The position numbers and the translations under genes are program-made. Shown here piece after piece: positions 1 through 58,120 of a stretch of 59,364 nt of DNA. Where the stretch lies: contig JALOTJ010000002.1 of NCBI GenBank assembly GCA_025457965.1, positions 1-59,364 of the forward strand, read 5' to 3'. Source of the stretch: Spirochaetota bacterium. GTDB taxonomy: Bacteria; Spirochaetota; UBA4802; UBA5368. The stretch's first letter is position 1; every line of letters starts with the position of its first letter. The notes under the pieces are model-generated. The model made no database searches and had not been told where the DNA came from. It was given only the letters and a program-made list of their open reading frames with translations.

Positions 1-696
1 CGGCCCGTGGTGCTCCTGGGGCACAGCCTCGGCGGAGTCATCGCGATGAAGTATGCGCTGACCCACCCTGCTGACCTAAGGGCGCTCGTTTTATCGTCGG
101 CGGGGCTCATCCTCTCCGTTAAGGTCCCCGAGTGGAAGAAGAAGATGGGGCTGTTCTTTGCGCGCCATATCCCCTCGCTGTCGATGCGAAACGAACTCGA
201 CGCCAATGACCTATCGCACGATCGCCTGAGTGTCGATGCCTACGTAAAAGATCCTCTGGTCCACGACCAGGTGACGGCCCGCTGGTATACTGAATTTATC
301 GCGGCCGGGGATGAGTGTCTCAGACGTGCATCCGAACTGCGGATGCCGCTGCTCGTGATCCATGGGAAGGCGGATAAGATGGTGGACTACAGGGGCAGTG
401 AACGCGTTTACGCGGGCGTGTCCACGCCCGCGAAGGACAAGGCGCTCCACATCTTTTCAGGCTTGTATCATGAGACCATGAACGAGACCCCGCCCGAGCG
501 GAAGAAAGTGCTGGATGCCGTGGCGAAGTGGATCGCTGCGCACCTGGGAGCCCGGCCGGCCAGTGCCGCCGGATCCTCAAAGGCGGTTAAGAAAGCGAAA
601 ACAGTGAAAAAAACCGTCGCGAAAACGACGAGAAAATCGCCGGTGAAAAAGGCGGCCGCAAGGCCGGCGAAGAAAAAAACGGCGAAGAAAAGATAA
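1..696 (+). CDS. Alpha/beta hydrolase (lysophospholipase/monoacylglycerol lipase family), 5'-truncated by window edge, with Lys/Ala-rich C-terminal tail
   Basis: GHSLGG nucleophile elbow, HGKADKMV acid motif, YHE catalytic His; frame is open to position 1. Confidence 0.9.
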   Translation, partial: RPVVLLGHSLGGVIAMKYALTHPADLRALVLSSAGLILSVKVPEWKKKMGLFFARHIPSLSMRNELDANDLSHDRLSVDAYVKDPLVHDQVTARWYTEFIAAGDECLRRASELRMPLLVIHGKADKMVDYRGSERVYAGVSTPAKDKALHIFSGLYHETMNETPPERKKVLDAVAKWIAAHLGARPASAAGSSKAVKKAKTVKKTVAKTTRKSPVKKAAARPAKKKTAKKR

Positions 697-720
697 GCGT
701 TTTGTCAAAAGCCCCAAATA

Positions 721-750
721 AAAAAGCCGGGTGGGAGTGCCCGGCTTTTT
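721..750. terminator. Bidirectional intrinsic terminator between the hydrolase and flaB
   Basis: AAAAAGCCGGG-tgggagtg-CCCGGCTTTTT: stem flanked by A and T tracts between convergent genes. Confidence 0.85.
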
Positions 751-778
751 GAATGATACTGCGATGCTGGCTCTGGAC

Positions 779-1627
779 TTATCGTAACAACTGCAAAACC
801 GTCTGCGACTTGGTGTTCGCCTGCGCGAGCATTGCCGTCGCGGCCTGGGTGAGAATCTGGTAGCGTACGAACGACGACATCTGCTCTGCCATGTCGGTAT
901 CGCGGATGCGACTTTCGGATGCCTGCACGTTTTCGTAGGCGTTCATGAGGCCCTTCGCCGCGTGCTCGAGCCGGTTGTAATACGCGCCCAGGTCGGCCCG
1001 CTGCTTGGAGATGATGCGCAACGCCTCGTCGGCGATGCCGATGACCGAGTTGGCCTTGCCGGGCGTCGAAATCGAAATAAAGGTGAGCACGGTGGGGTTG
1101 CGCAGTCCCAGCGCCGCCGTGGTCATGGTCTCAATGAAAACCCGTTCGCGCTGGTGCATGTTCGGACCCATGTGGAACCACATCGACGCCGTCGGGTGCA
1201 GGCGCGCAAACGATCCGGTGAGGAGCTTCATTTTGTTGAATTCCGCCTGCGAGGAGATGCGGTCGATTTCGTCGACGAGTTCGGAAATCTCCACCTGTAT
1301 CTGCTGGCGGTCTTCGGGGGTATAGATGCCGTTGGCCGACTGTACCGCGAGCACGCGTATGCGCTGAAGTATGTCGTGGGTCTGCTGCAGGTACCCTTCG
1401 GCGGTCTGGATCATGGACATGCCGTCTTCGGTGTTGCGTTCCGCCTGGCGGAGGCCGCTTATCTGGGAACGCATCTTTTCGGATACGGCAAGTCCGGAGG
1501 CGTCATCACCCGCCTTGTTGATCCGCAGGCCCGACGACAGCTTCTCGATGTCCTGAGTGATATTCCAGTCGTGGAATTTAAGTGTACGATGGGCGAATAT
1601 CGCGCTCACGTTGTGGTTTATGATCAT
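779..1627 (-). CDS. flaB: Periplasmic flagellar filament core protein FlaB (flagellin)
   Basis: MIINHN start, [28 protein letters not shown]-terminal [12 protein letters not shown]; 282 aa is typical of spirochete FlaB; AAGGAGG SD. Confidence 0.97.
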
Positions 1628-1649
1628 ATCGTTCCTCCTTGAATTTTCA

Positions 1650-1667
1650 GCTATCGTCCCTGATAGC
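1650..1667 (-). promoter_or_regulatory. Putative CsrA-binding hairpin in the flaB leader
   Basis: Minus strand GCTATC-AGGGAC-GATAGC, with GGA in the loop, just upstream of the GGA-containing SD. Confidence 0.6.
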
Positions 1668-2119
1668 AGCTATGGATAGAGTTGTTGCAAAACCTGGGAA
1701 CATCCGGGTATTTTCCGCCGACGGCGGGTTAAAACCTTCGCGTTCTCCAGTCATGCAAAACGTCTAGTACTCATAGTGATCATCCTGAAGGTCGTCAGTT
1801 TAAAAAATATATTAGAGATCGATTACAGTCGATTATAGATTATTATAGGTATTTATAACTGTTTATGGACATTATTCGTCGTATTTCTATTAAGTTGCAA
1901 TTTTTTATTTTTAGTAAAATTTCTGTTTCATGCGACGTGCCCTGTTATTCCGGCGCTGTTGGTAAGTTTATTGAAATCGGTTTTATTCTCAAAATAGTGT
2001 TGGTGTTCTTCCGGTGTGGAGCATTCCCGGAGGCGGTCGTTTTGTTCTTGTAAATAATGGCGGTCGGCTGTTCTGTGCTGTGAAAACGGATCGTACGGGT
2101 ATCGGTAAAGGTTTTGTAA

Positions 2120-4657
2120 ATGGTAAAAAGATTCGGCGGGTACTCTCCGCGGATGAGATCCCCACTTTCGACACGGCGCGGCGCTTCGCGGCTCCCTGGA
2201 ATTGCGCAATGGGTCATGGACACGCTGGGCGGGTTCTCTTCGCGTGTTCAAAATCCGCGCGCGCTCCTTGTCGGGATCGTGGCAGGGGTGTTGTGCGCCT
2301 TCATCATCATACTCGTTGTGGATTTTTTCCGGGTGAGATCGCTGGCAAGCTTCGAACCCAAGGTGCCCACCAAGATATTCGATAAAAACGGCGTGCTGGT
2401 GGCCGAGCTCTTCAGGCAGAAGCGCGAGGTGGTACCGCTTTCGAAGATTCCCAAAAACCTCGCCCATGCCTTTGTGGCCATAGAAGACACCGAATTTTAT
2501 GAACACTTCGGCATCAATCCGAAGGGCATCGCGCGGGCATTCTTCATAAATGTTTTTTCCGGGCGGATCAGGCAGGGCGGAAGCACCATCACGCAGCAGC
2601 TTTCAAAGATACTCCTGACCTCCGGCGAGAGAAGCATCTATCGCAAGGTCAAAGAGGCATTTATTTCCATAATGATGGAAATTTTCTATACCAAGGACGA
2701 AATACTGACGTTGTACCTCAACCAGATATTTCTGGGGCACGGGGCCTATGGCGTACAGTCTGCATCGCAGTTTTATTTCAACAAGAATGTCTGGGACCTC
2801 AACCTGGCCGAGTGCGCGCTCCTGGCATCGCTGCCTTCGTCGCCCAACAATCTTTCACCGATACGCTTTCCGGAGCGCTCACTCGAGCGGCACAAAATCG
2901 TGCTGGCCAAGATGGTGGAGGCTGGCTACGTCACCATTCCGCAGGCGGAGAAGGCGTACCTCGATTTCTGGCCGGATTATCTCTATTATATAAACGAGCT
3001 ACCCCCGACCATGAATACCTGGTCGTCGAGGATTGACAAGGCGCCGTGGTTTACCGAGTACGTGCGCCGCATGCTGGTTAAAAAGTACGGTGAGGAAAAG
3101 GTGTACGAGGAAGGGCTTCTGGTATATACCACCATGGACCTCACCAAGCAGCTGGCGGCCCAGAAGGTGCTGCCTCCGGCCCTCAAGCGTCAGACGGCGG
3201 TTTCGGGCAGCCTCGCGTTCAGGAGGGAGGACCAGATCACGGAACAGTATGGCCCCCTGGTCGACGTGTTTTCGCTCCTGTTTAACTGCAATCCCTTCAG
3301 GCGGACCGGTTCGCTCGAGGTGAAGAAAGTCAACGATGCGCTTAAAGAAAGGGTGATCGACGAGCTGGAAATCATCAACTATTTTACAGGAGGCGATGCC
3401 CTGGGGGAAACCATCCAGCACTACCGAGTAGGGTATGCCGACGACAAGGATTATCAGAAAGTGGAGGGTTGTCTGATCTCGATCGACCATCGGACCGGTT
3501 ATATCGAGGCGATGATGGGAGGCAGCGAGTTTACGAGCGGCAACCAGCTCAATCGCTCCATGCAGTCAATGCGCCAGCCCGGTTCGGCTATCAAGCCCCT
3601 GCTGTATGCCGCCGCCATGGAATCGAAAAAGTTTTCGCCGGCCACCGCCGTGCTCGATTCGCCACTGGTATACCTCGACACCGAGGGCGGGGACTGGGTG
3701 CCGGAGAACTACGAAGGCGAATATTACGGCCTGCTGCGGCTGCGCAAGGCGCTTTCCCTCTCGATTAACGTAATCAGCATCCGCATCGCCGACACGCTCG
3801 GGATCGAGTACGTTATGCGGTTTTACGGCAAGCTCCTGAAGCTCAGTTCGGCGGACACAAAACGGCGTGTGCCCCGGAATTTTTCCATCGCACTCGGGTC
3901 GTTCGAGGTTTCGCCCTTCGAGCTCGCGCGCGCCTACGCGATCATCGCAAACGGCGGCAGGGACGTCATTCCCTTCAGCGTCAGAAGCGTGAAGGACCGC
4001 AACGGCCGGGTTCTCGAGAACAACGAGGAGGAGATCGCCGCATTGATCAGAAAACGCGAAGCGGACGGTACGATGCAGGTACTCCAGCCGGCAACCGCAC
4101 AGATAATGATCAGTCTTCTGCAGTCGGTCATTTCATCGGGAACGGGGTCGGCGGCATCGATCGGCCGCGCGGCCGCGGGGAAGACGGGCACCACGAATAA
4201 CTGGAAGGATGCATGGTTCTGCGGTTTTTCGCCGTCAATCACCACCTGTATCTGGATGGGCTATGATAAACTGGGGCTTTCGCTGGGCATAGGCCAGGCC
4301 GGGGGGGCCGTTGTTGCGCCCGCATGGGGCGATTACATGCGCGATGCGCTCAGGAACGAGGAGGCATACAGCTTCCCGCAATTCGCGGCCCTTTCGGAAA
4401 AACAGGTATGCGCGATTTCAGGCCTCACCCTGTCGTCGAACTGCCGTAACAGTGTGAGCGAGGTTTTTATTCCGGGGACCGAACCGGAGGAGGAGTGTAC
4501 GCTGTGCCGGGACGCCCTTCACGAGGTGAAGGTGCTCCAGAAGGGCCCGAGGGAGAACATCTCGGGCGGACAGAAAAAGTCGATTATGAAAAACATCAAA
4601 AAGAAAAAGGACACCGATCGCATACTCGACAAGGTCGGCAACGATTTGTTAAACTGA
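2120..4657 (+). CDS. mrcA: Class A penicillin-binding protein (PBP1A)
   Basis: TM anchor, transglycosylase motifs AIED..FYEH.G and QGGSTITQQL, transpeptidase motifs QPGSAIKP, SIN, KTGT. Confidence 0.95.
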   Translation: MVKRFGGYSPRMRSPLSTRRGASRLPGIAQWVMDTLGGFSSRVQNPRALLVGIVAGVLCAFIIILVVDFFRVRSLASFEPKVPTKIFDKNGVLVAELFRQKREVVPLSKIPKNLAHAFVAIEDTEFYEHFGINPKGIARAFFINVFSGRIRQGGSTITQQLSKILLTSGERSIYRKVKEAFISIMMEIFYTKDEILTLYLNQIFLGHGAYGVQSASQFYFNKNVWDLNLAECALLASLPSSPNNLSPIRFPERSLERHKIVLAKMVEAGYVTIPQAEKAYLDFWPDYLYYINELPPTMNTWSSRIDKAPWFTEYVRRMLVKKYGEEKVYEEGLLVYTTMDLTKQLAAQKVLPPALKRQTAVSGSLAFRREDQITEQYGPLVDVFSLLFNCNPFRRTGSLEVKKVNDALKERVIDELEIINYFTGGDALGETIQHYRVGYADDKDYQKVEGCLISIDHRTGYIEAMMGGSEFTSGNQLNRSMQSMRQPGSAIKPLLYAAAMESKKFSPATAVLDSPLVYLDTEGGDWVPENYEGEYYGLLRLRKALSLSINVISIRIADTLGIEYVMRFYGKLLKLSSADTKRRVPRNFSIALGSFEVSPFELARAYAIIANGGRDVIPFSVRSVKDRNGRVLENNEEEIAALIRKREADGTMQVLQPATAQIMISLLQSVISSGTGSAASIGRAAAGKTGTTNNWKDAWFCGFSPSITTCIWMGYDKLGLSLGIGQAGGAVVAPAWGDYMRDALRNEEAYSFPQFAALSEKQVCAISGLTLSSNCRNSVSEVFIPGTEPEEECTLCRDALHEVKVLQKGPRENISGGQKKSIMKNIKKKKDTDRILDKVGNDLLN

Positions 4658-36036: not shown

Positions 36037-37968
36037 TTACCAGCCCCCGCCTCCACCTCCGCCTCCGCCTCCGCCGGAAGACCCTCCGCCTCCGCCGCCG
36101 GAACTCGAGCCCGGCGCGGTAGCGGAAGACGAGATGGCGCTGCTGAAGGAGTTTCCCAGCGACGAGGCGAATTCCCCGGTGCCGATGTGCGCGAGGGACG
36201 CCCCGCTGTACCAGGATGGTGAGTAGGCTCCGGCCGCGGCCGATTCCGCAAGCATGCCTGAGAAATATTCCGCCCAACGGTTTTCAACGCCGAGGGCGAT
36301 TGCGTAAGGAAGGAACCGTTCGAATGTCGCCGGTGTTTTCTCGGGCGGCATAACCGCGTTGAGGCGGTCGCGCTCGGCAACGTTCAGGAAGAGCCTGAAT
36401 CCTTCGATTTTATCCATAAGGGCTCGCCCGGTCCGGGTGGGCGCCTTAAGGAGATGATAAAACAGGAAGTTTACCAGCGCCAGGCAGATCGTTGTAAGCA
36501 AAATCCACGGGCTCCCCGATTGTAGATAAATTACAAGAACGACGATCTCGGCGCCGACAAACGGCAGCGCGAAGAGCGTCAGGAATACGGCCCCGCCCGA
36601 GGCGAAGACCTTCCTGATACCTCCCCTCATTCGCACCGCCTCACGCCAGGCGGCCGTCACTTTCCAGAGCAGCAACACGACGCCGATGCTCCAGAACGCG
36701 AGCCAGATCAGCAGGAAGGTCTCCGGAGACTCGAGGAATCCGAAGACGATTGAGATGGCTATAACGGTGACTGACAATAGAAGCCCCGGCACGAAATACG
36801 CCACGTTTCTGAGGAAATACTGCTTCTCGTAATTAAGCGATAGTGTCCGACGCGCCGCCTTGATGGCCCCGGAGATGCGGGAGTGGTTTGCGGTTTCCAG
36901 TGCGATGCTTTTATCCTTCCCGAACAGTTTTTCGAGTATCTTCTTTTCCTCCGGGGTCAGGTCGGAGCCTTCCCCGTCGAGCTTCCGCAGGGTGTACACG
37001 CCATCGTCGTCGCTGATTGTGCAATGGCCCCGGACCGCCATTCCCACGATGGCGGCGGCAAATGCGCGGTTATCGTAGCCCATTTGCGATACGAAACGCA
37101 GGGCGGCGGGAGAGAGGCCGTCGGGAGCTGCGTACAACGGTATGATGACACCCTTGCGCGGATCCCGCCCTGCGAGCACCCAGGCAACCATATAATATAA
37201 AAGAACAAGGAAGAATCCTCCAATGCCCGTGACCGCTCCCATGTTGTCATGAAGGAATCGCTCGCGTTGGCGCAGGTGATCCGGAGGATCTATCAGGTCC
37301 GCCGGCCAGCGGACCGCGATAGTGAGCCCCTCGCCGGGGGCGAACATTTTCGATGAAGAAAAGTGAACCGCGCCTGAGGCATTGATTGAAGAAGAATAGC
37401 TCCGGCCCTTTTCACCCTCCACGCCCGTATAAGCCTCGTGCGAAATAACGTGTCCCCGTGCGCCACGGGGCAGGATAAGCTCGGCGGTGGCCGAATCGAT
37501 TGTGAATTCCCACTGGTTTCCGGTGACGTTCCAGTACAACTCGGTAAAATCGTGAGAGAAACCGAGCTGGAAATCGGTCGTATAGGTCAGAGAGTAGGTG
37601 TAAATATCCGGGTCCAGGTAAACGTTTTCACTGCCGATATAGACACGCTTTCCGCGATCAATGCTTTCAACGTGGAAAGGCTCGGGATGTCCGTCCCTCT
37701 GCACCTCGACTACATCGAACGGTACGGACTTGTTGAATCCGAATTTTCCCCTGTATATGGTCGGGAAGTCGCGGTAAATGCCGCGCTTTATGCGATCGCT
37801 CGCGCTGCGGACGGTGATGATCTCGGTCACCCTGAGGCTGCCGTCCTCGCGCACAATGATGGTGCTGTCGAAACGAAGTATCCGCTCGTCGCCCTGGCCG
37901 CGGACACTTGTGCCACCAAGTGTTACCGCGACGGCCAGGAGGAGAATTATCAGTTTTTTTCCGTTCAT
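36037..37968 (-). CDS. DUF2207 membrane protein
   Basis: Signal peptide, GIYRDFP, ELYWNVTG..W, FERFLPYAIALG, Gly-rich GGGGW end; downstream of lemA. Confidence 0.92.
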   Translation of the reverse strand: MNGKKLIILLLAVAVTLGGTSVRGQGDERILRFDSTIIVREDGSLRVTEIITVRSASDRIKRGIYRDFPTIYRGKFGFNKSVPFDVVEVQRDGHPEPFHVESIDRGKRVYIGSENVYLDPDIYTYSLTYTTDFQLGFSHDFTELYWNVTGNQWEFTIDSATAELILPRGARGHVISHEAYTGVEGEKGRSYSSSINASGAVHFSSSKMFAPGEGLTIAVRWPADLIDPPDHLRQRERFLHDNMGAVTGIGGFFLVLLYYMVAWVLAGRDPRKGVIIPLYAAPDGLSPAALRFVSQMGYDNRAFAAAIVGMAVRGHCTISDDDGVYTLRKLDGEGSDLTPEEKKILEKLFGKDKSIALETANHSRISGAIKAARRTLSLNYEKQYFLRNVAYFVPGLLLSVTVIAISIVFGFLESPETFLLIWLAFWSIGVVLLLWKVTAAWREAVRMRGGIRKVFASGGAVFLTLFALPFVGAEIVVLVIYLQSGSPWILLTTICLALVNFLFYHLLKAPTRTGRALMDKIEGFRLFLNVAERDRLNAVMPPEKTPATFERFLPYAIALGVENRWAEYFSGMLAESAAAGAYSPSWYSGASLAHIGTGEFASSLGNSFSSAISSSATAPGSSSGGGGGGSSGGGGGGGGGGGW

Positions 37969-37984
37969 ATCCGGTGTCTCCGCT

Positions 37985-38536
37985 TCAGAACCTGACCTGC
38001 GGCGCCTCTCGCTCCACGGCCGATTCGATTTCGAAGAAGGCCGCCGGCTGGAATCCGAACTTTTTCCCGACGAGCGAACTGGGAAAAGACTCGAGCAGGA
38101 TGTTGAAATCGCGGGCGGTGCCGTTATAATAGCGGCGCGCCAGCTGAAGCTGGTCCTCAATTTCAGAAAGCGAGTTTTGCAGGCCGCTGAAATTTTCACT
38201 TGCACGGAGCTGGGGATATGCCTCGGCGACAGCCAGGAGTTTTCGGAGCCCGAGGGAAAGGGCGTTTTCCGCATCGACCTTCGCGTCCGGTCCCTCTGAG
38301 CCCATGCAGCGGCTGCGTAGGGCGGCAACCTCTTCCATGAGCTTTTTCTCGTGTGAGGCATAGCCTTTGACCGTCTCGACCAGGTTGGGGATGAGGTCGT
38401 AACGGCGCTTCAGTTGAACGTCGATACCGCTCCATGCCTCACGGAGCATGTTACGAAGGGCGACGAAACGGTTGTAGGTGATGATGACCCAGAGGATGAG
38501 GACGGCGAGTGCTCCCGCCGCTATGATGACGTACAT
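37985..38536 (-). CDS. lemA: LemA family protein
   Basis: WSGIDVQLKRRYDLIPNLVETVKGYA.HE, EAYP.L.A..NF, RRYYN. Confidence 0.95.
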   Translation of the reverse strand: MYVIIAAGALAVLILWVIITYNRFVALRNMLREAWSGIDVQLKRRYDLIPNLVETVKGYASHEKKLMEEVAALRSRCMGSEGPDAKVDAENALSLGLRKLLAVAEAYPQLRASENFSGLQNSLSEIEDQLQLARRYYNGTARDFNILLESFPSSLVGKKFGFQPAAFFEIESAVEREAPQVRF

Positions 38537-49940: not shown

Positions 49941-50247
49941 GGTCCGCTCCTTTTCCAGGGGGGTCGCCCCCGTTAATGGTTACACAATCGGGCCGTGTCA
50001 TGCCTCTGGCAAGTATTATTCCCGCTCATGCTCCGGCCGGCAGCGGGGAGCGGGAAAAAAGAGTTGCATTTAGGGTTTCGCTTCTCGATACTTATCATGA
50101 TGCGGGCGCATGCCGTAATCAAGACGTTATGGGCCTGTTTGTCTAGATCCTCTTTTCCGCCGTTCCATTCAAGAATCGCTCGCCTTGCGGCGTTTCGGCG
50201 GGACCGCATCGTTTGGCTTTACGACTTATATTTATTACTGGAAAGGA

Positions 50248-51249
50248 ATGATGAAGTTCAAGATACGACAGTACCAGAGCGGCTTCAGGATGCGCTTTAC
50301 CGAACGCTATCATATCTGGAAGAAGAAATACGGGAAATGGTGGGATGGATTCCGCGAAAAGGGGCACGAGCGGATGACGGTTATGTTCATCCCTCATAAC
50401 GAAAAGAAGATTTTCAATTTCCAGATTTCCAAGTTCACCATATCGTTCTTCGTTCTGCTCTTCATGGTCGTGGTTGTCACCTCGTCCTATGCCGTCATAA
50501 AGAACGCGAGCTCCAAGCGCGAGGAAGCGCGGCTGATGATGAACTACAGGGACGTCAAGTCCAGTCTTCTGCGTTTCGAGAAGCTTACAAATAATATCGC
50601 CGATCTGATGGAGGAGATGAAGCCCGATATCGAGGAGCTCTACGAGCTTTCCGCCGGAGACAACGCCAATGTGGGCAAAATATGGAAGCTCGAGACCGGG
50701 CAGATGGAGGCCGTGGTCGAAGATAAGAGCATGAAGCCGCTTCTGCCCGAGGAGATAGAGACGCTAAGGGAGCTTCAGAGAAACCTCATCTGCACCACCA
50801 ACACGATCAAGACCGTGAAGAATTTCGTCGACGTGCGCAGCAAGGTGATCAACGATACGCCGTCGATCGTTCCGACGCAGGGGCACATCACCTCGCTTTT
50901 CGGATGGAGGCGCTCACCCTTCGGTTTCGGCAGGGACTTTCATACCGGGATCGACATAGCGGCGCCCCACGGCGCGGAGATACGGGTGACGGCCCCCGGC
51001 ACCGTTCTGTCGACCGGATGGTCCGGCGGCTACGGTTACATGGTGAGGGTGCGCCACAAGTACGGTTTTGAGACGATATACGGGCACTGCTCGCGTGTCG
51101 TTGCCGGTGTGGGTGAAAATGTGCGGAAGGGCCAGATTGTCGCTCATGTCGGCCAGACCGGTTCGGCGACCGGAAACCACTGCCATTACGAGATACGCCT
51201 CGGTACCGTCGCGATAAATCCATACCCCTACATGAGCAGGATCTGGTAG
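50248..51249 (+). CDS. M23 family metallopeptidase
   Basis: T.MFIPH spirochete-type N-terminus, TM, coiled coil, HTGID, YGH, HCHYE. Confidence 0.93.
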   Translation: MMKFKIRQYQSGFRMRFTERYHIWKKKYGKWWDGFREKGHERMTVMFIPHNEKKIFNFQISKFTISFFVLLFMVVVVTSSYAVIKNASSKREEARLMMNYRDVKSSLLRFEKLTNNIADLMEEMKPDIEELYELSAGDNANVGKIWKLETGQMEAVVEDKSMKPLLPEEIETLRELQRNLICTTNTIKTVKNFVDVRSKVINDTPSIVPTQGHITSLFGWRRSPFGFGRDFHTGIDIAAPHGAEIRVTAPGTVLSTGWSGGYGYMVRVRHKYGFETIYGHCSRVVAGVGENVRKGQIVAHVGQTGSATGNHCHYEIRLGTVAINPYPYMSRIW

Positions 51250-51335: not shown

Positions 51336-54300
51336 ATGTTCCCGCGGCTTTCTCTCTACTGCAAGGTCCTCGCCGTGGGCGCCTCCCTCTATGTCATTAC
51401 CGCAGCGCTTTCGCAGGAGTTCGATGAAAACGCCGGTTTCCGCGAATCACTTTTAAAGTATATCGAAACACACGAAAAGGGCGAGGCACCGCGCGTCTAT
51501 GTGGAGCGGGAGCTTCATCCTGAAGCGGACGGGGAGCTGGAGCCCGCGCCGCTGACATACCGTAAGGGCGACTGGGGGAAATATATCATCGCCCCGCGCT
51601 ACCGCCTCCTTACGGAGGACGGTCGTTACGAGGATTTCCACATTGAGGAGCGAGACGAGGTTGACATCAACTCCTACGGCTCTTCGAAACTCAATCTCAA
51701 CTACGGGAAGTCCAGTTTTACCAAATCGCGCTACAAGCAGTTCGACCAGGACAGGCCCGTTTCGCGCGTAATCACAAGCGGCTACAGTCCCGAACATGAA
51801 ACGCAGCTTCACGTGGAGGGTCGCATCGGCCAGCGCTTCTCTGTATACATAGACCACGACAGCGCCAAGGCCGACAACACCTACCGCATGCAGTACCGGG
51901 CCGTTCGCGACGACGAGGTGATCCGCGAGATAAACGCCGGCCAGATCGACATCAAGATGAACAACTCGAAGTACGCCGTGTACGACGACACCGACGCCAA
52001 GGGGATGGGGATGGACACCACCATCCGCAAGGGGAATCTGCAGGTGAAGGCGTTCGGGAGCGTCACGCGCGGGGAGACCGAGGTGGAGTACTTCCGCGGA
52101 AATTCCTCTCCCGGGAGTGTTGCGCTCAGGGAATACCAGTTCGTTCGAAAGACCCATTTCCAGATCGAACCCTTCAAGCGTTACGACAACCTGATGATTC
52201 CGCCGGCAGATCCGTACACGACGATAGCCATGACCTCGGAGCCCGCGGACCCTCAGGCATACCTGCCCTTCCCGGTGAATATCGATACGTCCGGGTTTGA
52301 ACTCTACATGGACGATCAGAACCCGCTGAACAACCTTAACGCGATCCAGCTGTCCATGGACGGCGGTTATTATACGCGAATGGTCGCCGGTTCCGATTAT
52401 ACGATCAACTTCAACACCGGTATGATAAGCATCCTGCGCGCGGTTCCGCACTCCGCCCGTATCTTTGCCGTCTATACGATCGGCGGTGGTACGGCCACCT
52501 CGGACCCGGCGGCCCTCGTCCCCGGCGATCCGGCTCATCCGGGCGGAGTGTTCTCCGGGAAGGTATTCGTTTTCATCAAATACGGCTATTCGATTCACGA
52601 GGAGATCGGTGACGACAGGAACAACGACGGAAAACAGAACTTCGACATCTATGAGGTGAGATCCGTTTATTATATCGGCCAGAGGCAGGTGCTGCAGGAA
52701 AACTTCAAGCTTCAGTTTTTCGGCAACAACCAGCTCCTGACCAGGGGAGAAACGCTGAAGCTCGGGAAGTACACCGTTGACTATTCGAAAGGGACCGTGA
52801 GTTTTCACCTGAGAGAACCGTTCAAACAGGTGCTACCCGATCCGCCCGATACGATCCAGTCGCTTGTTTACGCGGAAAGCCAGTCGGCCCTGGTGGTCGA
52901 TCGCTCGGTCTACAGCATTCGCGTCGATTATTACCGCGAGGCCCGGAGCTTCCAGCTTAAACATTTTAATATAATCCCCGACAGCGTGCGCATCAAGGTG
53001 GACGGGCGCGAGATCGCCAGGTCCCTCTATTCAATCGACCACACGTCGGGTTATTTAAGTTTTGCAAATCCGAACAATCCACTCATCGGTTCGGAAACGA
53101 ACATAGAGGTGAAGTACGAATACCTTCCCTTCACGGCGGAGTCGCAGTCCTTTATCGGCGGACTCAGGGCCGATTATCGGCTGAGCAGGGACCTGGGCGT
53201 CGGTGGCACCTTCCTGTACACGCGCTCCTCCGGGGGAGAGATCATACCAATGGTGGGGAGTGAGCCCTCTCAGACAATGGTCTTCGAGGGCGACGCTTCG
53301 CTCAAGCTCTCCGAGGGACGTATAAAGGACATGCTCAACGCCGTGCCGGGGGTATCGCTAAACGCGGCGCCTTTCGACCTCAAGGCGTATGCCGAGTACG
53401 CCCGCAGCTATAAAAACATCAACACCTTCGGTAAGGGTCTTGTCGACGATATGGAATCATCGGAGGAGATAACCGGGGTTTCGCTGTCGGACAAGGACTG
53501 GATACTCGCCTCAATGCCCGATTCCCTACCCCAGGCCGAGCGGGGAAGGCTATACTACAAGTATTACCGTGATCCCTCGAACGCTGGTTCGCTGAAAGGG
53601 ACCGGCTTTACGCCTTATAACGTTCCCTACGAAAAGAAGCCCGGGCCCTACAATGTCGCGACCGGGCATGTCGAGAATTCGGTACGCGACCTCGATACCC
53701 AGCGTTCACTGGTGTTTGAGTTCGAGTTTGCCGGAGCCGAGTCGCGCGCTCCTGTCGTTACCCGGCGCCTCTCGTCGGAGGCGGTTGATTTTTCGGGCCT
53801 GCAGTACGTGGAAGTCTGGTATCGCGGAGAGGCGCTCAGCGCACCGGTCGATCTGTATATCGATCTGGGGAAAATCGATGAGGATTCAGATGGAGACGGG
53901 AGCCTGGATACCGAGGACCTCAATCGCAACGGTTTCCTTGATTTCGATCCCTCGGCGGGCATTCACGAGGATCGCGGGTATCCGTTCAACCCTGCCGGTG
54001 GCTACAATACCTGGGTAGGCACCGGGCCGCAACTCGGCGATTCCACAATGGGTGACGGGGTGCTGAACACCGAGGATATAAACGGTAACGGCGTGCTCGA
54101 CCGCTATGAGAGCGTGGTGCGCCTGCCGGGCGCGGCAACGCAGGGCGGTCCCATATCCGTCGCTCTGGGCACCGGAGACTGGCAAATGGTCAGGATCTAT
54201 CTTTCGCGCAGTACGATCACCGCAGAGCAGATTGAAATATTGAAACAGGTAGAGGCGGTGCGGCTTTTCGTGCACTCATTGTCTCCGGCCACGGGCAGAA

Positions 54301-57029
54301 TTTACATCGACAGTCTCAAGTTTGTCTCGTCTCGCTGGCGGAACGTAAAGATCAACGGAGTCGCCGACGAGGACCCGGCGCGATTCAAGATCACCATGGT
54401 CGACACCCAGAACGATCCCGATTACAGGCTAAACGCCTTTGCATTTCTGAGAAGCGATATTTACCAGTCCCTGCACGGGGATAAGAGCGATAAGGAGCTC
54501 AGGGCCGAGATCGAGACAGCGCTGCAGATCGACTATAACCTGGCAGGCACGGGATCGGTAACGAGAAAGTTTTCAAAGCCGATGGACCTGCGGTTTTATA
54601 AAAAGATGAATATCTGGATCAACGCGCGAACAGCAAGTCCCGGGGACGCAATTCGCGTGCGGATCGGATCGACCGAGAGCGATTACTACGAATATCAGTT
54701 TCTGAATGATTACGGACCGGTATGGCGCGAGGTGATGCTCAACCTGCGTGACGGATCGGGAGGCATTAATAAAACGCTGTCCGAGGGGAACCCCGACCTG
54801 AAGCGCATTAATTATATGGAAGTCATAGTCAACAGCACCGGAACCGGCAAGCTCTGGGTGAACGATATGTACGCGAGCGATCCGGACACCCTTACCGACA
54901 GTGCGCACTGGTACGAGGTGGAGATCCGCGGGAAGCGACCGCTCTTTCGCACCAAATCCGGAGTGCCCGTGATCTCCGACCTCTACATTAAATATATCGA
55001 AAAGGGGCACGGATCTCAGTTCAGTACCGTCGGTAAAACCGCGACGGACATCGCTGAAAAATACCGCCAGCTTTTCACCTCGGTGAGCATCCTCCCCGAG
55101 TGGCGCATGCGCCTGGATTTTATCCAGGAAAAATCAGAAACCGATTCGTTCAACAACGAGGTCGCGGAGAACAGGCGAGGGCGGGCAGAAAAGCGGAGTT
55201 TTTACCTTGAATCCGATTACGCGCCAACGGCATCCATGGTGCCGAAGATCAAGCTCGTCTATAAAAACGACGCGTACGAAAACGAGCGTGGAGAGGATAT
55301 TACCGTGGGCTCGGATACGTATCGCGTTCAGCACCTGGTAAAAAACCGCGCGCACAGCCCGGCAATCCTGGTGAAAGATGAAATCGCCGAACTCTTCGGC
55401 GGAAAGCTATCAACAAGCCTCCAGATGGACATGTCCTTCAAGAAGGAGACCGTGTCAAGAAGCGCCGATGGTCTCGATCCGCCCACGCTCGAGACCTATC
55501 TGCCGCTCCACGAAAGCGAAAAGCGCCAGAAGGGCACGACGGAACTCAGCATCGACTACCAGTCGAGTAAGTTTCATGTGCGGCCGACCTTTCTTGTCGG
55601 TTCGCACGAAATAGTGGAGCTTTCGGGCAAGTCGGGACTCAGCGACACGGAGGTGCTCGGCGACGTGCGCGGCGACTATCACCTGCCGTTCGTGTACAGC
55701 GGGGACCATAAATTTGTCGAGCGAAACAGCAAGACCACGCTCTATGCGGGTCTCCGAAGACTGTGGATTTTTTCCCCTTCGGTCCGTACCGAGTTCCAGT
55801 ATTTCGAGAACCGTTTCCGCGACTACCAGGAAGCCGAACGTGTCACTTCCGGTCCTTTCGAGCGATCCAAAGACGCCCGGGGATTCGTATCGAACGGATT
55901 TACGCTGCCGGTTGATTTTCACGGGGTGCCCGCTCTCTCTTTTGTAAAGGGCTGCAATTTCTCATATACCAGGTCGCTCCTCCTTCAGGAGGCTGCCATT
56001 CCCTATGAGGGCGAGGGGGTGGGGGCCTTGCGTGAAGAATACGGCATCAACAGGGCGTTCAGGGGCCTTTCCGATGCCGGCTTCGACATGTTCTCCTATC
56101 CTCCATGGCATTTTTTTACCGGGCGCGGGAATTTCGCCAATGGCAGGGATTTCGCGTATAACCGACTCAATCGAAAAATCGTTTATCCCGGCGGGGAGCA
56201 GGCGGGTAATTATACAAACAGCCTGAAACTCGTCGATAGCTATTCGCTGAATACGACCATGGACTTCGAAAAGGTCATCGTGACCGGCGGAGGAAACCTG
56301 AGTCAGGTGAGCGAGCGGCAGACGGTCGAGGGCATTCCACAGCAGGTGGTGACGCTCAGTGCGAACACAAATATAAACCTGGACCTCATGCGCATTTTCT
56401 CTTTCGGTTTCTTCCGCCCCAACACTCCGGGACTGCCCTATCACGCGGCCACCTTTTTCATCGGTTACGATTACGGGCGCAACATGCTTATCACCTACAA
56501 TATAGAGGAGAATGTCCATACGCCCAGGGTGGGGGTAACGCTGAAGCGTGACCGTTCCAGCCTCAGTCTGCGCTCGGGCGTCGATTACCGCCACAGGACG
56601 CGCAAGGAATATATTGAGTACGACGAATCTCAGCGCGATCGCAGGGACGATATTTTCATCGCCAACATGGCAATATCGCCGCCGTTCAAGGAGGTCGACA
56701 GGGGTTACAGCTTTTCAGCGTTATATGAAACGGACGTGCTGTGGCTCTATGCCGCGTTCTCGAGCCTGTACAAGCTGGTGGCCTTCCCGATTTTCAGCAT
56801 CGAATACTCGCTTTTGCTCAACCGCTACGACTATACACGCACGGTATCTCCGGAACCCTACGACCAGCATCTCGTATCGGCAAAGCTTACCATGGATCTT
56901 CATAAAAACGTACAGGGAGGGCTCGTCGCGCGGTGGGCTCTGGAGCGTTACCGCAACAGGGAAACCGAAGGGATCGCCCGCGAGATTGTATCCTATCAGG
57001 TGGGTCTGAATTTTACCCTGGTGTTCTAA
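51336..57029 (+). CDS. Large outer-membrane protein, SprA/Sov-like
   Basis: Signal peptide; SprA-like blocks LHVEGRIG..F.V..D, Y....DEVIREINAG.I, NII.DSV...DG...YSID...G, G.EP, G.G.VDDME.S, LYIDLG.IDED, TED.N.NG.LD; amphipathic beta C-terminus ending in F. Confidence 0.75.
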   Translation: MFPRLSLYCKVLAVGASLYVITAALSQEFDENAGFRESLLKYIETHEKGEAPRVYVERELHPEADGELEPAPLTYRKGDWGKYIIAPRYRLLTEDGRYEDFHIEERDEVDINSYGSSKLNLNYGKSSFTKSRYKQFDQDRPVSRVITSGYSPEHETQLHVEGRIGQRFSVYIDHDSAKADNTYRMQYRAVRDDEVIREINAGQIDIKMNNSKYAVYDDTDAKGMGMDTTIRKGNLQVKAFGSVTRGETEVEYFRGNSSPGSVALREYQFVRKTHFQIEPFKRYDNLMIPPADPYTTIAMTSEPADPQAYLPFPVNIDTSGFELYMDDQNPLNNLNAIQLSMDGGYYTRMVAGSDYTINFNTGMISILRAVPHSARIFAVYTIGGGTATSDPAALVPGDPAHPGGVFSGKVFVFIKYGYSIHEEIGDDRNNDGKQNFDIYEVRSVYYIGQRQVLQENFKLQFFGNNQLLTRGETLKLGKYTVDYSKGTVSFHLREPFKQVLPDPPDTIQSLVYAESQSALVVDRSVYSIRVDYYREARSFQLKHFNIIPDSVRIKVDGREIARSLYSIDHTSGYLSFANPNNPLIGSETNIEVKYEYLPFTAESQSFIGGLRADYRLSRDLGVGGTFLYTRSSGGEIIPMVGSEPSQTMVFEGDASLKLSEGRIKDMLNAVPGVSLNAAPFDLKAYAEYARSYKNINTFGKGLVDDMESSEEITGVSLSDKDWILASMPDSLPQAERGRLYYKYYRDPSNAGSLKGTGFTPYNVPYEKKPGPYNVATGHVENSVRDLDTQRSLVFEFEFAGAESRAPVVTRRLSSEAVDFSGLQYVEVWYRGEALSAPVDLYIDLGKIDEDSDGDGSLDTEDLNRNGFLDFDPSAGIHEDRGYPFNPAGGYNTWVGTGPQLGDSTMGDGVLNTEDINGNGVLDRYESVVRLPGAATQGGPISVALGTGDWQMVRIYLSRSTITAEQIEILKQVEAVRLFVHSLSPATGRIYIDSLKFVSSRWRNVKINGVADEDPARFKITMVDTQNDPDYRLNAFAFLRSDIYQSLHGDKSDKELRAEIETALQIDYNLAGTGSVTRKFSKPMDLRFYKKMNIWINARTASPGDAIRVRIGSTESDYYEYQFLNDYGPVWREVMLNLRDGSGGINKTLSEGNPDLKRINYMEVIVNSTGTGKLWVNDMYASDPDTLTDSAHWYEVEIRGKRPLFRTKSGVPVISDLYIKYIEKGHGSQFSTVGKTATDIAEKYRQLFTSVSILPEWRMRLDFIQEKSETDSFNNEVAENRRGRAEKRSFYLESDYAPTASMVPKIKLVYKNDAYENERGEDITVGSDTYRVQHLVKNRAHSPAILVKDEIAELFGGKLSTSLQMDMSFKKETVSRSADGLDPPTLETYLPLHESEKRQKGTTELSIDYQSSKFHVRPTFLVGSHEIVELSGKSGLSDTEVLGDVRGDYHLPFVYSGDHKFVERNSKTTLYAGLRRLWIFSPSVRTEFQYFENRFRDYQEAERVTSGPFERSKDARGFVSNGFTLPVDFHGVPALSFVKGCNFSYTRSLLLQEAAIPYEGEGVGALREEYGINRAFRGLSDAGFDMFSYPPWHFFTGRGNFANGRDFAYNRLNRKIVYPGGEQAGNYTNSLKLVDSYSLNTTMDFEKVIVTGGGNLSQVSERQTVEGIPQQVVTLSANTNINLDLMRIFSFGFFRPNTPGLPYHAATFFIGYDYGRNMLITYNIEENVHTPRVGVTLKRDRSSLSLRSGVDYRHRTRKEYIEYDESQRDRRDDIFIANMAISPPFKEVDRGYSFSALYETDVLWLYAAFSSLYKLVAFPIFSIEYSLLLNRYDYTRTVSPEPYDQHLVSAKLTMDLHKNVQGGLVARWALERYRNRETEGIAREIVSYQVGLNFTLVF

Positions 57030-58120
57030 CCGCCTAGAATGCTTTCGATTTTTCCTTTCATTCGCCGGTAAAAGCCACGCAGCTCGATGAATCGTACGTT
57101 GTCGCGGGCCGCCTTCAGTGTCTCAATCGTCGTAAGCCGAACCGCCTTCCAGAGCAGTTCCCTGTCGGGGCAGGAGGCGAAATAATCCAGGTTCACCTGG
57201 TAGGCTCCCTTGTAGGCGCGACCGCCCCCGTTGGGTGTTATGCTCTTGATGAGGCCGTTCAGATCGAGATCGGAATTAGATGTGCGAAATGAGACATCCA
57301 GGGAAAGTCCTCCCCGGCTTTTTTTTTCAATGATGGCGAATACCGCGACGGTTTCGGCCTCCCCGCTCACGAGCAGGAAATCGGCGACGATGGCGATATT
57401 GTCCCTTTTGGATTCGTCAATGAACGAAAGGCCGGCGAAGAACCAGTCGCGGTACGTTTCATGGTCGGACATGGCGGTACTGATGAGCCTGAGTGCGTCC
57501 TCCGAAAGCGGCAGGTTCGATATCTTTTGAACGATCCGTTCGTCGACCATCATGGAAAGAAACTGAAGCGCCTCGTAATCGAGCTTAGTCGCATGGCGCA
57601 GATTGTCCGTATCGGTTTGGATGCCAAGAAGCAGGGCGGTGGCAACGGCCTTGCGCATGGAGCCGCGCGGTGGCAGATCGAGCTCGCGGAGAATGAGTGT
57701 CATGTAGGTGCTTGCCGCGCCCGCCTGGTCCGAGACCAGGCGGAAATCGGCCTTAACATCGTCTTCCTCCTCGGCATGATGATCTATATGCACGGCGCAC
57801 GGAAGTTTTTCCGAAACGCCTTTTGTATATGCCGACTGGAAGTCCAGCACCGCATACGCGTCGTAACCGTGCGGCGAAGGCGCACCCTTTTCGATGGTCA
57901 GGGGAATCTCGAGACTTTTAACGATCGCCCTGTTCTGCGGATGCGAAATTTCGGCAAGCGCCACGATTGATGATTTGAGGCCGATATGGTCGCATACCGC
58001 CATGAGAGCGAAGGAAGAGGCGATAACATCAGGATCCGGCGAGCCCTTGATGAGGATGAGGAGATTGTGATACCGGGCGAGAGCTTCGAGCAACCGGTCT
58101 GAAGATTTGCGCGCGTTCAT
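57026..58120 (-). CDS. DHH family phosphoesterase
   Basis: PDPD, VLD, IDHH, GI.TDT, S.R, GGG motifs. Confidence 0.88.
   Translation of the reverse strand: MNARKSSDRLLEALARYHNLLILIKGSPDPDVIASSFALMAVCDHIGLKSSIVALAEISHPQNRAIVKSLEIPLTIEKGAPSPHGYDAYAVLDFQSAYTKGVSEKLPCAVHIDHHAEEEDDVKADFRLVSDQAGAASTYMTLILRELDLPPRGSMRKAVATALLLGIQTDTDNLRHATKLDYEALQFLSMMVDERIVQKISNLPLSEDALRLISTAMSDHETYRDWFFAGLSFIDESKRDNIAIVADFLLVSGEAETVAVFAIIEKKSRGGLSLDVSFRTSNSDLDLNGLIKSITPNGGGRAYKGAYQVNLDYFASCPDRELLWKAVRLTTIETLKAARDNVRFIELRGFYRRMKGKIESILGG

Follow-up and report, generated by a model that had tools for sequence, protein, structure and literature searches.

A giant outer-membrane β-barrel protein is encoded at positions 51336..57029 (+) of a 59,364-nucleotide stretch of DNA from a metagenome-assembled Spirochaetota genome (assembly GCA_025457965.1, contig JALOTJ010000002.1); the whole stretch is called the window here. 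By profile similarity and predicted fold, the protein is a divergent homologue of SprA/Sov, the T9SS (type IX secretion system) translocon, and it points to an undescribed, simpler relative of that machine in a spirochaete. The reading favored here, to which we give a probability of about 0.6, is that the barrel serves as the pore in an export route which is related to the T9SS, lacks its motor and uses cargo-specific PorV-like carriers.

The available text of PMC10994853 describes SprA as a 36-strand barrel with an external cap and a lateral opening. PorV docks across this opening and its loops reach into the pore, where the C-terminal domain (CTD) of the substrate binds them. Extraction of the PorV–substrate complex requires energy supplied by the GldLM motor, and the SprA N-terminus binds SkpA. 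Reviews and structural papers, in the text available from them, describe the T9SS as specific to Bacteroidota or to the Fibrobacteres–Chlorobi–Bacteroidetes (FCB) group, and the available text of the TXSScan survey reports it from 60 of 97 Bacteroidetes genomes and from no other clade (PMC4793230). The host described here, a spirochaete, lies outside that range. The nearest published item is a Brachyspira preprint, the available part of which interprets a PorV/PorQ-family protein as FadL-like. In the literature on SprA or T9SS together with spirochaetes, Leptospira, Elusimicrobia or Fibrobacterota/Gemmatimonadota no description of the family was found, supplements being outside the scope of this search and the TXSScan tables possibly holding sub-threshold SprA matches.

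Sequence and predicted structure of the giant barrel

The gene was delimited from the open reading frame (ORF) list and its translation, and assigned to the SprA family by TIGR04189, Foldseek and VIA. It begins with ATG and runs uninterrupted to a stop codon included in its coordinates, which confirms the 1897-residue frame called in an earlier reading of the DNA made from the sequence alone (the sequence-only reading). The translation opens with MFPRLSLYCKVLAVGASLYVITAALSQ, a hydrophobic, signal-peptide-like segment, and closes with ...NFTLVF, so that both outer-membrane targeting marks named in that reading, a signal peptide and a terminal Phe, are present when the translation is read by eye. 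The signal-peptide-like N-terminus covers residues 1–26 (51336..51413 (+)), and AlphaFold predicts a helix at residues 5–28. It is followed by a low-confidence, probably flexible stretch at residues ~27–106 (51414..51653 (+); pLDDT below 50 at residues 27–35 and 47–106), which occupies the place of the SprA periplasmic N-terminal extension; the VIA alignment to SprA begins at model residue 90–108.

The NCBIfam SprA/Sov model TIGR04189 matches the protein in four stretches with an E-value of 1.2e-39 and 135.5 bits, against a curated cut-off of 200 bits, and a run of the model on the source genome likewise gave nothing above that cut-off. Direct similarity to the SprA profile extends over residues ~144–860 (51765..53915 (+)) as three collinear stretches on the plus strand: 51765-52193 (profile positions 125–267), 52767-53522 (525–789) and 53706-53915 (886–959). 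The ten blocks that the sequence-only reading had taken as SprA-like are all found in the protein, at residues 157–165, 168–173, 193–202, 545–557, 565–572, 637–644, 699–708, 818–828, 840–850 and 912–922. Seven of them were counted within the collinear TIGR04189-matched ranges (~144–286, 478–729 and 791–860) and three (637–644, 699–708 and 912–922) outside. Three of five distant relatives tested exceed the 200-bit cut-off (265, 215 and 212 bits), forming a continuum with annotated SprA. The SprA_N domain is present on distant relatives and on ESM Atlas neighbors of the barrel protein; 25 of 30 of these language-model neighbors belong to the set that carries it, in agreement with homology.

The protein was modeled by AlphaFold as two overlapping halves, residues 700–1897 (67-row alignment; mean pLDDT 87.7, pTM 0.60) and residues 1–1000 (pLDDT 77.2, pTM 0.38). 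In Foldseek searches of the PDB, the same four SprA chains (8gl6_A, 8gl8_A, 6h3i_A and 6h3j_A) came top with either half. For the C-terminal model their E-values ranged from 6.2e-25 to 1.3e-20 (TMq 0.47–0.55), with the next match at 2.3e-6; for the N-terminal model they ranged from 1.7e-35 to 4.0e-22, with the next at 2.9e-5. The gap to the next match is therefore at least 14 orders of magnitude in both cases, although TMq is only 0.23–0.26 for the N-terminal model because the half-barrel is globally poorly placed. Both halves thus pick SprA chains exclusively as their top four in the AlphaFold and Foldseek check that the sequence-only reading had proposed, and a lack of any SprA profile or structural match, which that reading had named as fatal to its claim, is not what was found.

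VIA superposed residues 1..1198 of the C-terminal model on SprA 855..2401 over 909–966 residues (Z 14.0–15.3, root mean squared deviation (rmsd) 8.0–8.7, 14% identity), and residues 90-108..1000 of the N-terminal model on SprA 111-134..1263 over 612–755 residues (Z 15.1–16.7, 17–19% identity, rmsd 29–34). From the register of the two halves, the protein is collinear with SprA end to end (SprA residues 132–2401) and ~500 residues shorter. In the C-terminal half, Z alone fails to separate SprA from TonB-dependent transporters (about 15 for both), whereas the aligned length does, at 909–966 residues for SprA against 376–506 for other barrels; alignment length and register therefore carry the argument there.

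A jelly-roll or carbohydrate-binding-module-like domain region was located by VIA at residues ~700–1185 (53433..54890 (+)) and corresponds to part of the SprA extracellular cap region. The matches are CBM11-, CBM27- and CBM30-like (Z 11–15, 139–168 residues aligned) and fall within model ranges 1..485 and 708..1000. This region holds two acidic Asp/Asn-rich motifs, DSDGDGSLDTED at residue 850 and DINGNGVLD at residue 914, which from their resemblance to similar motifs may bind calcium. The strand-rich C-terminal barrel wall, at residues ~1240–1897 (55053..57026 (+)) and ending in the terminal Phe, was placed by DSSP of the AlphaFold model and aligns through SprA residue 2401. Read from the secondary-structure strings of the half-models, it comprises 23 strands of 12–27 residues between residues 541 and 1196 of the C-terminal model (the last 660 residues), and the N-terminal model adds further strands at residues 109–265 and 526–703.

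Compared with SprA of Flavobacterium johnsoniae and Sov of Porphyromonas gingivalis (PDB 6h3i, 6h3j, 8gl6 and 8gl8), the spirochaete protein is likewise a giant single-chain outer-membrane barrel, collinear from about residue 132 to the C-terminus at 2401. It shares with them the jelly-roll domain region, the long strand-rich C-terminal wall, the signal peptide, the terminal Phe and, in its N-terminal third, blocks of the sequence profile. It differs in its length (1897 aa against 2319 TIGR04189 profile positions and SprA residue 2401), in a structure-based identity of 14–19%, in scoring below the family cut-off and having no SprA_N domain, in the position of its gene beside a gene for an M23 peptidase, and in a host without detectable GldKLMN or PorU.

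Distribution in Spirochaetota and beyond

The barrel protein matches 147 database proteins at an E-value of 0.001 or better. Among the 120 matches listed, lengths are 1568–1930 aa and identities 42–99%, the taxon names are Spirochaetota, Spirochaetes or Leptospirales except for one plain 'bacterium', and every homologue that has a name is a 'hypothetical protein'; three of the 120 (P0011, P0052 and P0063) carry the precomputed label PF27067.1, although a Pfam search assigned no family to P0011. Loci were counted over the 80 best related ones, on contigs of one genome per species, and 79 of these are titled Spirochaetota or Leptospirales and one 'uncultured bacterium'. The frame is uninterrupted in 75 of the 80, a script filter having left out five for a stop in the extended frame. 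Sixty-six of the 75 frames are 1800–1990 aa long, the shorter ones lying at contig ends, and mean column identity in a 39-sequence family alignment is 52%. The source genome (3.23 Mb in 174 contigs, 77.57% complete, 0.18% estimated contamination) encodes the spirochaete flagellar sheath protein FlaA (50.6 bits), which was matched in none of 14 control genomes. From the locus titles and FlaA the contig is spirochaetal and not of FCB origin, and these together with the synteny of the flanks mean that FCB contamination is not the explanation.

Phylogenetic profiling within the phylum, another check suggested in the sequence-only reading, was made with a profile of the N-terminal 1000 residues. 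A SprA-like gene was found in 105 of 301 sampled Spirochaetota genomes, including 85 of the 246 that are of high quality (at least 90% complete), in frames of ~1600–2340 aa. It is single-copy and nearly universal in the source order, being present in 39 of 43 sampled genomes (the source genome, G000, included), occurs in many other families, and is nearly missing from three large ones (0/45, 1/38 and 0/28). The barrel locus was also matched in DNA metagenomes from wetland, soil and sediment.

Against 1.84 billion representative proteins, the same profile gave 1555 matches with E-values of at most 0.001, of which 559 were at or below 1e-30. The relatives of one distant match that passes TIGR04189 come from candidate division FCPU426, Firestonebacteria, Coatesbacteria, Elusimicrobiota and Endomicrobium, and all are called 'hypothetical'. 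SprA-like proteins of 1700–2200 aa from outside the FCB group include P0185, P0206, P0271, P0272, P0295, P0303, P0319, P0324–P0340 and P0346. More distant still are canonical SprA_N proteins of 2275–2507 aa, for example from Melioribacter roseus. The proteins of Elusimicrobiota, Firestonebacteria, FCPU426 and Coatesbacteria resemble the spirochaete family in being shorter and non-FCB, and are intermediates between it and canonical SprA; they differ in forming a clade of their own. In an unrooted FastTree tree of 30 hand-picked rows and 1738 columns, with SH-like support, the spirochaete proteins (99), canonical SprA (100) and the proteins of these four groups (99) are three separate clades, which fits old inheritance within phyla better than recent transfer.

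PorV-like barrels and CTD proteins

The window contains no porV or porKLMN gene, as stated in the sequence-only reading. Its suggestion of possibly different partners stands in part: motor components went undetected (see below), and not every partner differs, as barrels of the PorV/PorQ family and CTD-like domains of the T9SS type are present elsewhere in the source genome and in its relatives. In the source genome, a cassette outside the window (contig C56:22235-22947; locus L117:8236-8948) consists of a CTD-only gene followed by the start of a PorV-like gene. The CTD-only protein is a 166-aa ORF, or ~118 aa from a second Met where the signal peptide starts, and has little beyond the signal peptide and the CTD-like domain. 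It scores 25.7–26.8 bits with the cargo model Por_Secre_tail (TIGR04183/PF18962; cut-off 23) and 32.8 bits with the PorZ tail, its best matches being the tails of PorZ and PorU, and CHU_C and FlgD_ig matches are sub-threshold. The contig end truncates the PorV-like gene to an N-terminal fragment (26 bits). Of 12 loci in relatives, 11 have the whole cassette, with a PorV-like paralogue of ~340 aa directly after the CTD gene; the twelfth is cut by a contig end.

The CTD-only protein is predicted to bind the PorV-like barrel, the modeled complex reaching an ipSAE of 0.92 against 0.01 for the best of three controls. Contact agreement between runs is at least 96%, and partner pLDDT is at least 89. 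In calibration, 58 of 80 solved complexes and 2 of 110 mismatched pairs attained this ipSAE mark. Since solved PorV–CTD complexes exist, the result demonstrates resemblance to them and is no proof of binding.

A second type of carrier candidate was found in genomes of the same genus, where proteins of 398/399 aa pass the PorV/PorQ family model NF033709 over their full length (131–132 bits, cut-off 90). They also match Pfam UPF0164, which we take to be the FadL-like family of Treponema pallidum. These barrels (L100:7894-9090 and L101:3810-5009) carry a C-terminal TPR-like tail of ~70 residues with a weak match to a Leptospira TPR protein (BatC, 18.4 bits). The neighbors of the 398-aa gene were considered as T9SS-like partners and rejected, being only an unknown 395-aa protein, RNase PH, a LysM-M23 peptidase and a TPR protein. 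Across the phylum, 74 of 301 genomes exceed the cut-off of the family model, and 69 of these also have the SprA-like gene (G073, G079, G176, G213 and G244 being the exceptions, as read from the table). The PorV equivalog NF033710 had no match in the source genome and none over its cut-off in the 301, and the relatives' barrels stay below the PorV, PorQ and PorV2 equivalog cut-offs.

Por_Secre_tail matches occur in 97 of the 301 genomes. Twenty-seven have three or more, with up to at least 18 scored and up to 83 first-look candidates, and 24 of these 27 CTD-rich genomes carry the SprA-like gene (exceptions, from the table, G017, G079 and G244). Since related genomes are not independent, these co-occurrence counts are descriptive and not a statistical test. 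Twelve genomes (G004, G006, G020, G034, G046, G058, G069, G078, G079, G105, G244 and G264) combine from 9 to at least 18 CTD proteins with dozens of PorV-like paralogue candidates, and neither GldM nor GldL was detected in these CTD-rich Spirochaetota genomes. At least 13 same-strand pairs were listed (G034:C199, G020:C81 and G086:C59 are examples) in which ~70–260 nt separate the end of a CTD gene from a PorV-family gene downstream of it.

In Bacteroidota, genes for type B CTD cargo lie beside porP/sprF-like genes. The spirochaete pairs repeat this order of a CTD cargo gene followed by its cognate barrel gene, a comparison backed by PMC9143113, and differ in that the barrel is PorV/PorQ-like instead of PorP/SprF-like and the CTD matches the type A model. 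The likeness to PorV/PorQ barrels and to the CTDs of PorU, PorZ and cargo lies in the pass with the PorV/PorQ family model, in the second paralogue directly after the CTD-only gene, and in the predicted binding; the differences are the scores below the equivalog cut-offs, the TPR-like tail of the 398-aa form, the lack of a passenger domain in the CTD protein, and a host in which no sortase was found.

Por_Secre_tail matches were obtained in 25 of the 46 genomes from the source order (over the cut-off in 23), mostly to the single small CTD-only protein, which is also the one match in the source genome. One genus of the order has one to six matches, and four to six in three of the six genomes sampled from it; larger proteins are among these matches, some of which sit on short contigs. 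In addition, a protein of ~850–900 aa recurs in the order (G309:C83, G233:C21, G157:C55 and G100:C29), and its last ~130 residues weakly match the PorU CTD tail. The protein may be a second cargo or be anchored at the surface. Its counterpart in the source genome is an 840-aa fn3 protein (C167:22820-25342 (-)) with a tail score of 16.6 bits, which phmmer links weakly to the C56 CTD-only protein (E-values of 0.0028 and 0.026). A jackhmmer search for further CTD-like tails in the source genome recovered the seed alone. The source genome also encodes an 812-aa Lsa66-like OmpA-family protein (C84:38150-40588 (-), L116), which scores 266 bits, short of the cut-off, and whose first 250 residues are barrel-like; its CHU_C-like and FlgD_ig domains, that is, T9SS-type immunoglobulin-like (Ig) domains, are internal and do not form a tail.

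Searches for motor, ring and sortase components

No canonical T9SS was found. In the source genome, GldM and PorP/SprF (TIGR03519) had no match, the latter in a search without a positive control, and the best scores for GldL (15.6 bits against a cut-off of 68.3), GldK (50.3 against 350, covering the generic domain alone) and PorU (19.2 against 420, covering the tail alone) were far below threshold. The search was extended to 46 genomes of the order, 38 of them of high quality. GldL and GldN had no match there at an E-value of 0.001 or better, and GldL was likewise missing from the five CTD-richest genomes, both searches being without a positive control. GldK was over its cut-off in none of the 46; partial matches in 31 of them (best 118 bits against 350) cover profile positions ~210–407, the generic sulfatase-modifying-enzyme-like part. 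PorU was also over its 420-bit cut-off in none of the 46, nearly all matches being to the CTD tail alone (best 83.9 bits).

GldM exceeded its cut-off in none of the 301 phylum genomes, and gave two weak matches. One of these, in G273 (L107:1414-2061, G273:C89), was discarded as a motor component: it is a 215-aa secreted protein having the GldM C-terminal-like domain alone (81.6 bits) and no membrane anchor, and neither GldL nor GldN was found in that genome.

A putative motor-less export route and its alternatives

The sequence-only proposal that a SprA-like giant barrel serves a spirochaete as a T9SS-related translocon is supported by these data; as to export itself, we infer by analogy with SprA that the barrel would conduct proteins. 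In the export route proposed here, Sec-exported proteins with a T9SS-type C-terminal Ig-like domain would enter the barrel from the periplasm and be captured by a 14-strand carrier barrel of the PorV/PorQ family, presumed to dock on the giant barrel. The cargo would then exit bound to its carrier, as in Bacteroidota. The proton-driven GldLM/PorLM motor, the GldKN ring and the PorU sortase would not be part of the system and, with none of them in place, release would be either spontaneous or driven by an unknown energizer. A probably co-transcribed M23 peptidase may open the peptidoglycan locally for the periplasmic side of the machine.

A broader evolutionary version, to which we give somewhat less than even odds, is that SprA, a PorV-like carrier and the CTD signal make up an ancient motor-free secretion core. 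Beyond the FCB group this core would be widespread, occurring in many lineages of Spirochaetota and also in Elusimicrobiota, Firestonebacteria, FCPU426 and Coatesbacteria. The T9SS of Bacteroidota would amount to the same core plus the GldKLMN motor-ring and PorU, and the spirochaete version would have cargo-specific PorV-like barrels encoded beside their cargo and take its release energy from an unknown source or from none. Export across the outer membrane in free-living spirochaetes is, to our knowledge, poorly understood. A pore that functions with PorV-like carriers and CTD tags and without GldLM would extend this secretion mechanism to Spirochaetota and probably to several candidate phyla, would provide a candidate surface-display route for proteins in free-living spirochaetes, and would offer a natural 'motor-deleted' system in which to ask which step of T9SS transport needs energy and how the machine evolved.

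Several observations weigh against a motor-less export pore. The TIGR04189 score lies below the curated cut-off, the Pfam check suggested in the sequence-only reading gave no SprA_N (PF14349) match at E-values up to 1, phmmer of the barrel protein against PDB sequences gave no SprA chain at E-values up to 1, and a 39-member family profile gave no PDB sequence at all within the same limit, so that the link to SprA rests on TIGR04189 and the fold comparison. Weaker PorV/PorQ-family matches extend to 177 of the 301 genomes, including families without the SprA-like gene, and a Bacteroides thetaiotaomicron control exceeds the family cut-off. This species we take to lack a T9SS, and the PorV/PorQ family alone is accordingly not diagnostic of one. 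The source order has very little cargo, most genomes having the one small CTD-only protein and the weak-tailed 850–900-aa protein, and the complex prediction may reflect the model's memory of solved complexes such as 8gl6. GldL, GldN and PorP matched no genome, the controls included, which leaves those negatives without a positive control, and the incompleteness of the source genome weakens its negatives further. No expression data were found for the barrel locus, no RNA run being listed with it. Finally, release of the substrate from SprA needs motor energy in Bacteroidota, according to the available text of PMC10994853, which leaves a version without the motor no known means of finishing transport.

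The alternative that survives best is that the SprA fold has here another, housekeeping role in the envelope, such as outer-membrane biogenesis, export of surface lipoproteins or of a polymer, or uptake, and not CTD-directed secretion. We consider this unlikely, while granting it a real minority of our credence. A single-copy gene that is near-universal in the order (39/43) and lies in tight linkage with an M23 gene (61/70 loci), in genomes that have just one or two CTD-like proteins and no detected motor, is what such a role would lead one to expect, as is a homologue placed directly after dxr–rseP in two distant lineages, the place that bamA has in many diderm bacteria. A housekeeping role would leave aside, however, the co-occurrence of the SprA-like gene with strong PorV-family barrels (69/74) and with CTD-rich genomes (24/27), and the cassette of CTD-only and PorV-like genes kept in the same genomes; protein translocation is, moreover, the sole known function of the SprA fold.

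A further alternative, which we hold improbable, is that the barrel belongs as pore to an essentially canonical T9SS, the motor and ring genes having escaped detection as too divergent for the NCBIfam models or as unassembled. SprA and PorV are themselves divergent enough here to miss the equivalog cut-offs, the GldM C-terminal-like domain does occur in the small secreted protein of G273, and both the GldL, GldN and PorP searches without a positive control and the 77.57% completeness of the source genome leave room for such an oversight. That room is narrowed by the lack of any GldM over cut-off in 301 genomes, 246 of them at least 90% complete, by the lack of GldL and GldN matches in the order (and of GldL in the CTD-richest genomes), by the confinement of GldK matches to the generic part of the profile, and by the fact that the same pipeline found divergent members of the SprA, PorV and CTD families. 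An FCB contaminant contig, a recent horizontal acquisition or a functionless, decaying relic is very improbable: the source is metagenome-assembled in 174 contigs and some relatives' CTD matches lie on very short contigs, but the flanks are syntenic across dozens of Spirochaetota assemblies, the spirochaete proteins group in a single clade of the 30-row tree (support 99), the reading frame is unbroken and conserved, and estimated contamination is 0.18%.

Gene neighborhood

Upstream of the giant-barrel gene, at 50185..51249 (+), lies a gene for an M23 (LytM-type) peptidoglycan metallopeptidase with a predicted membrane anchor (Peptidase_M23, 97.8 bits). The protein contains, on reading its sequence, HxxxD and HxH motifs, which we take to be those of the M23 family. 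The gap to the barrel gene is 86 nt in the window. Seventy loci have an upstream flank longer than 1.5 kb; in 61 of them the M23 gene lies directly upstream on the same strand, less than 600 nt away (median gap 88 nt), and this gene is the probable operon partner of the barrel gene. A promoter scan at the barrel locus gave results at chance level, and a terminator scan was uninformative.

Downstream, a DHH-family gene (57026..58120 (-); DHH, 31.7 bits) converges on the barrel gene and overlaps its stop by 4 nt. It lies directly downstream in 55 of the 72 loci whose downstream flank exceeds 1.5 kb, and is probably unrelated to the barrel in function; the DHH and SpoIIE genes are kept among the loci but are convergent. 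The M23, DHH, SpoIIE, RadA and MlaD flanks are syntenic in dozens of independent Spirochaetota assemblies.

In two distant lineages of the phylum, dxr and then rseP directly precede SprA-like genes for proteins of 2285 and 2342 aa (L105:4459-13866 in G003 and L106:1599-11576 in G078). Elsewhere in the window, at 36037-38536 (-), two same-strand ORFs overlap: the first, of 774 aa and ending in a run of ~25 Gly/Ser residues, overlaps the second, of 183 aa (37985-38536), in the latter's 3' part; these two ORFs may correspond to DUF2207 and LemA.

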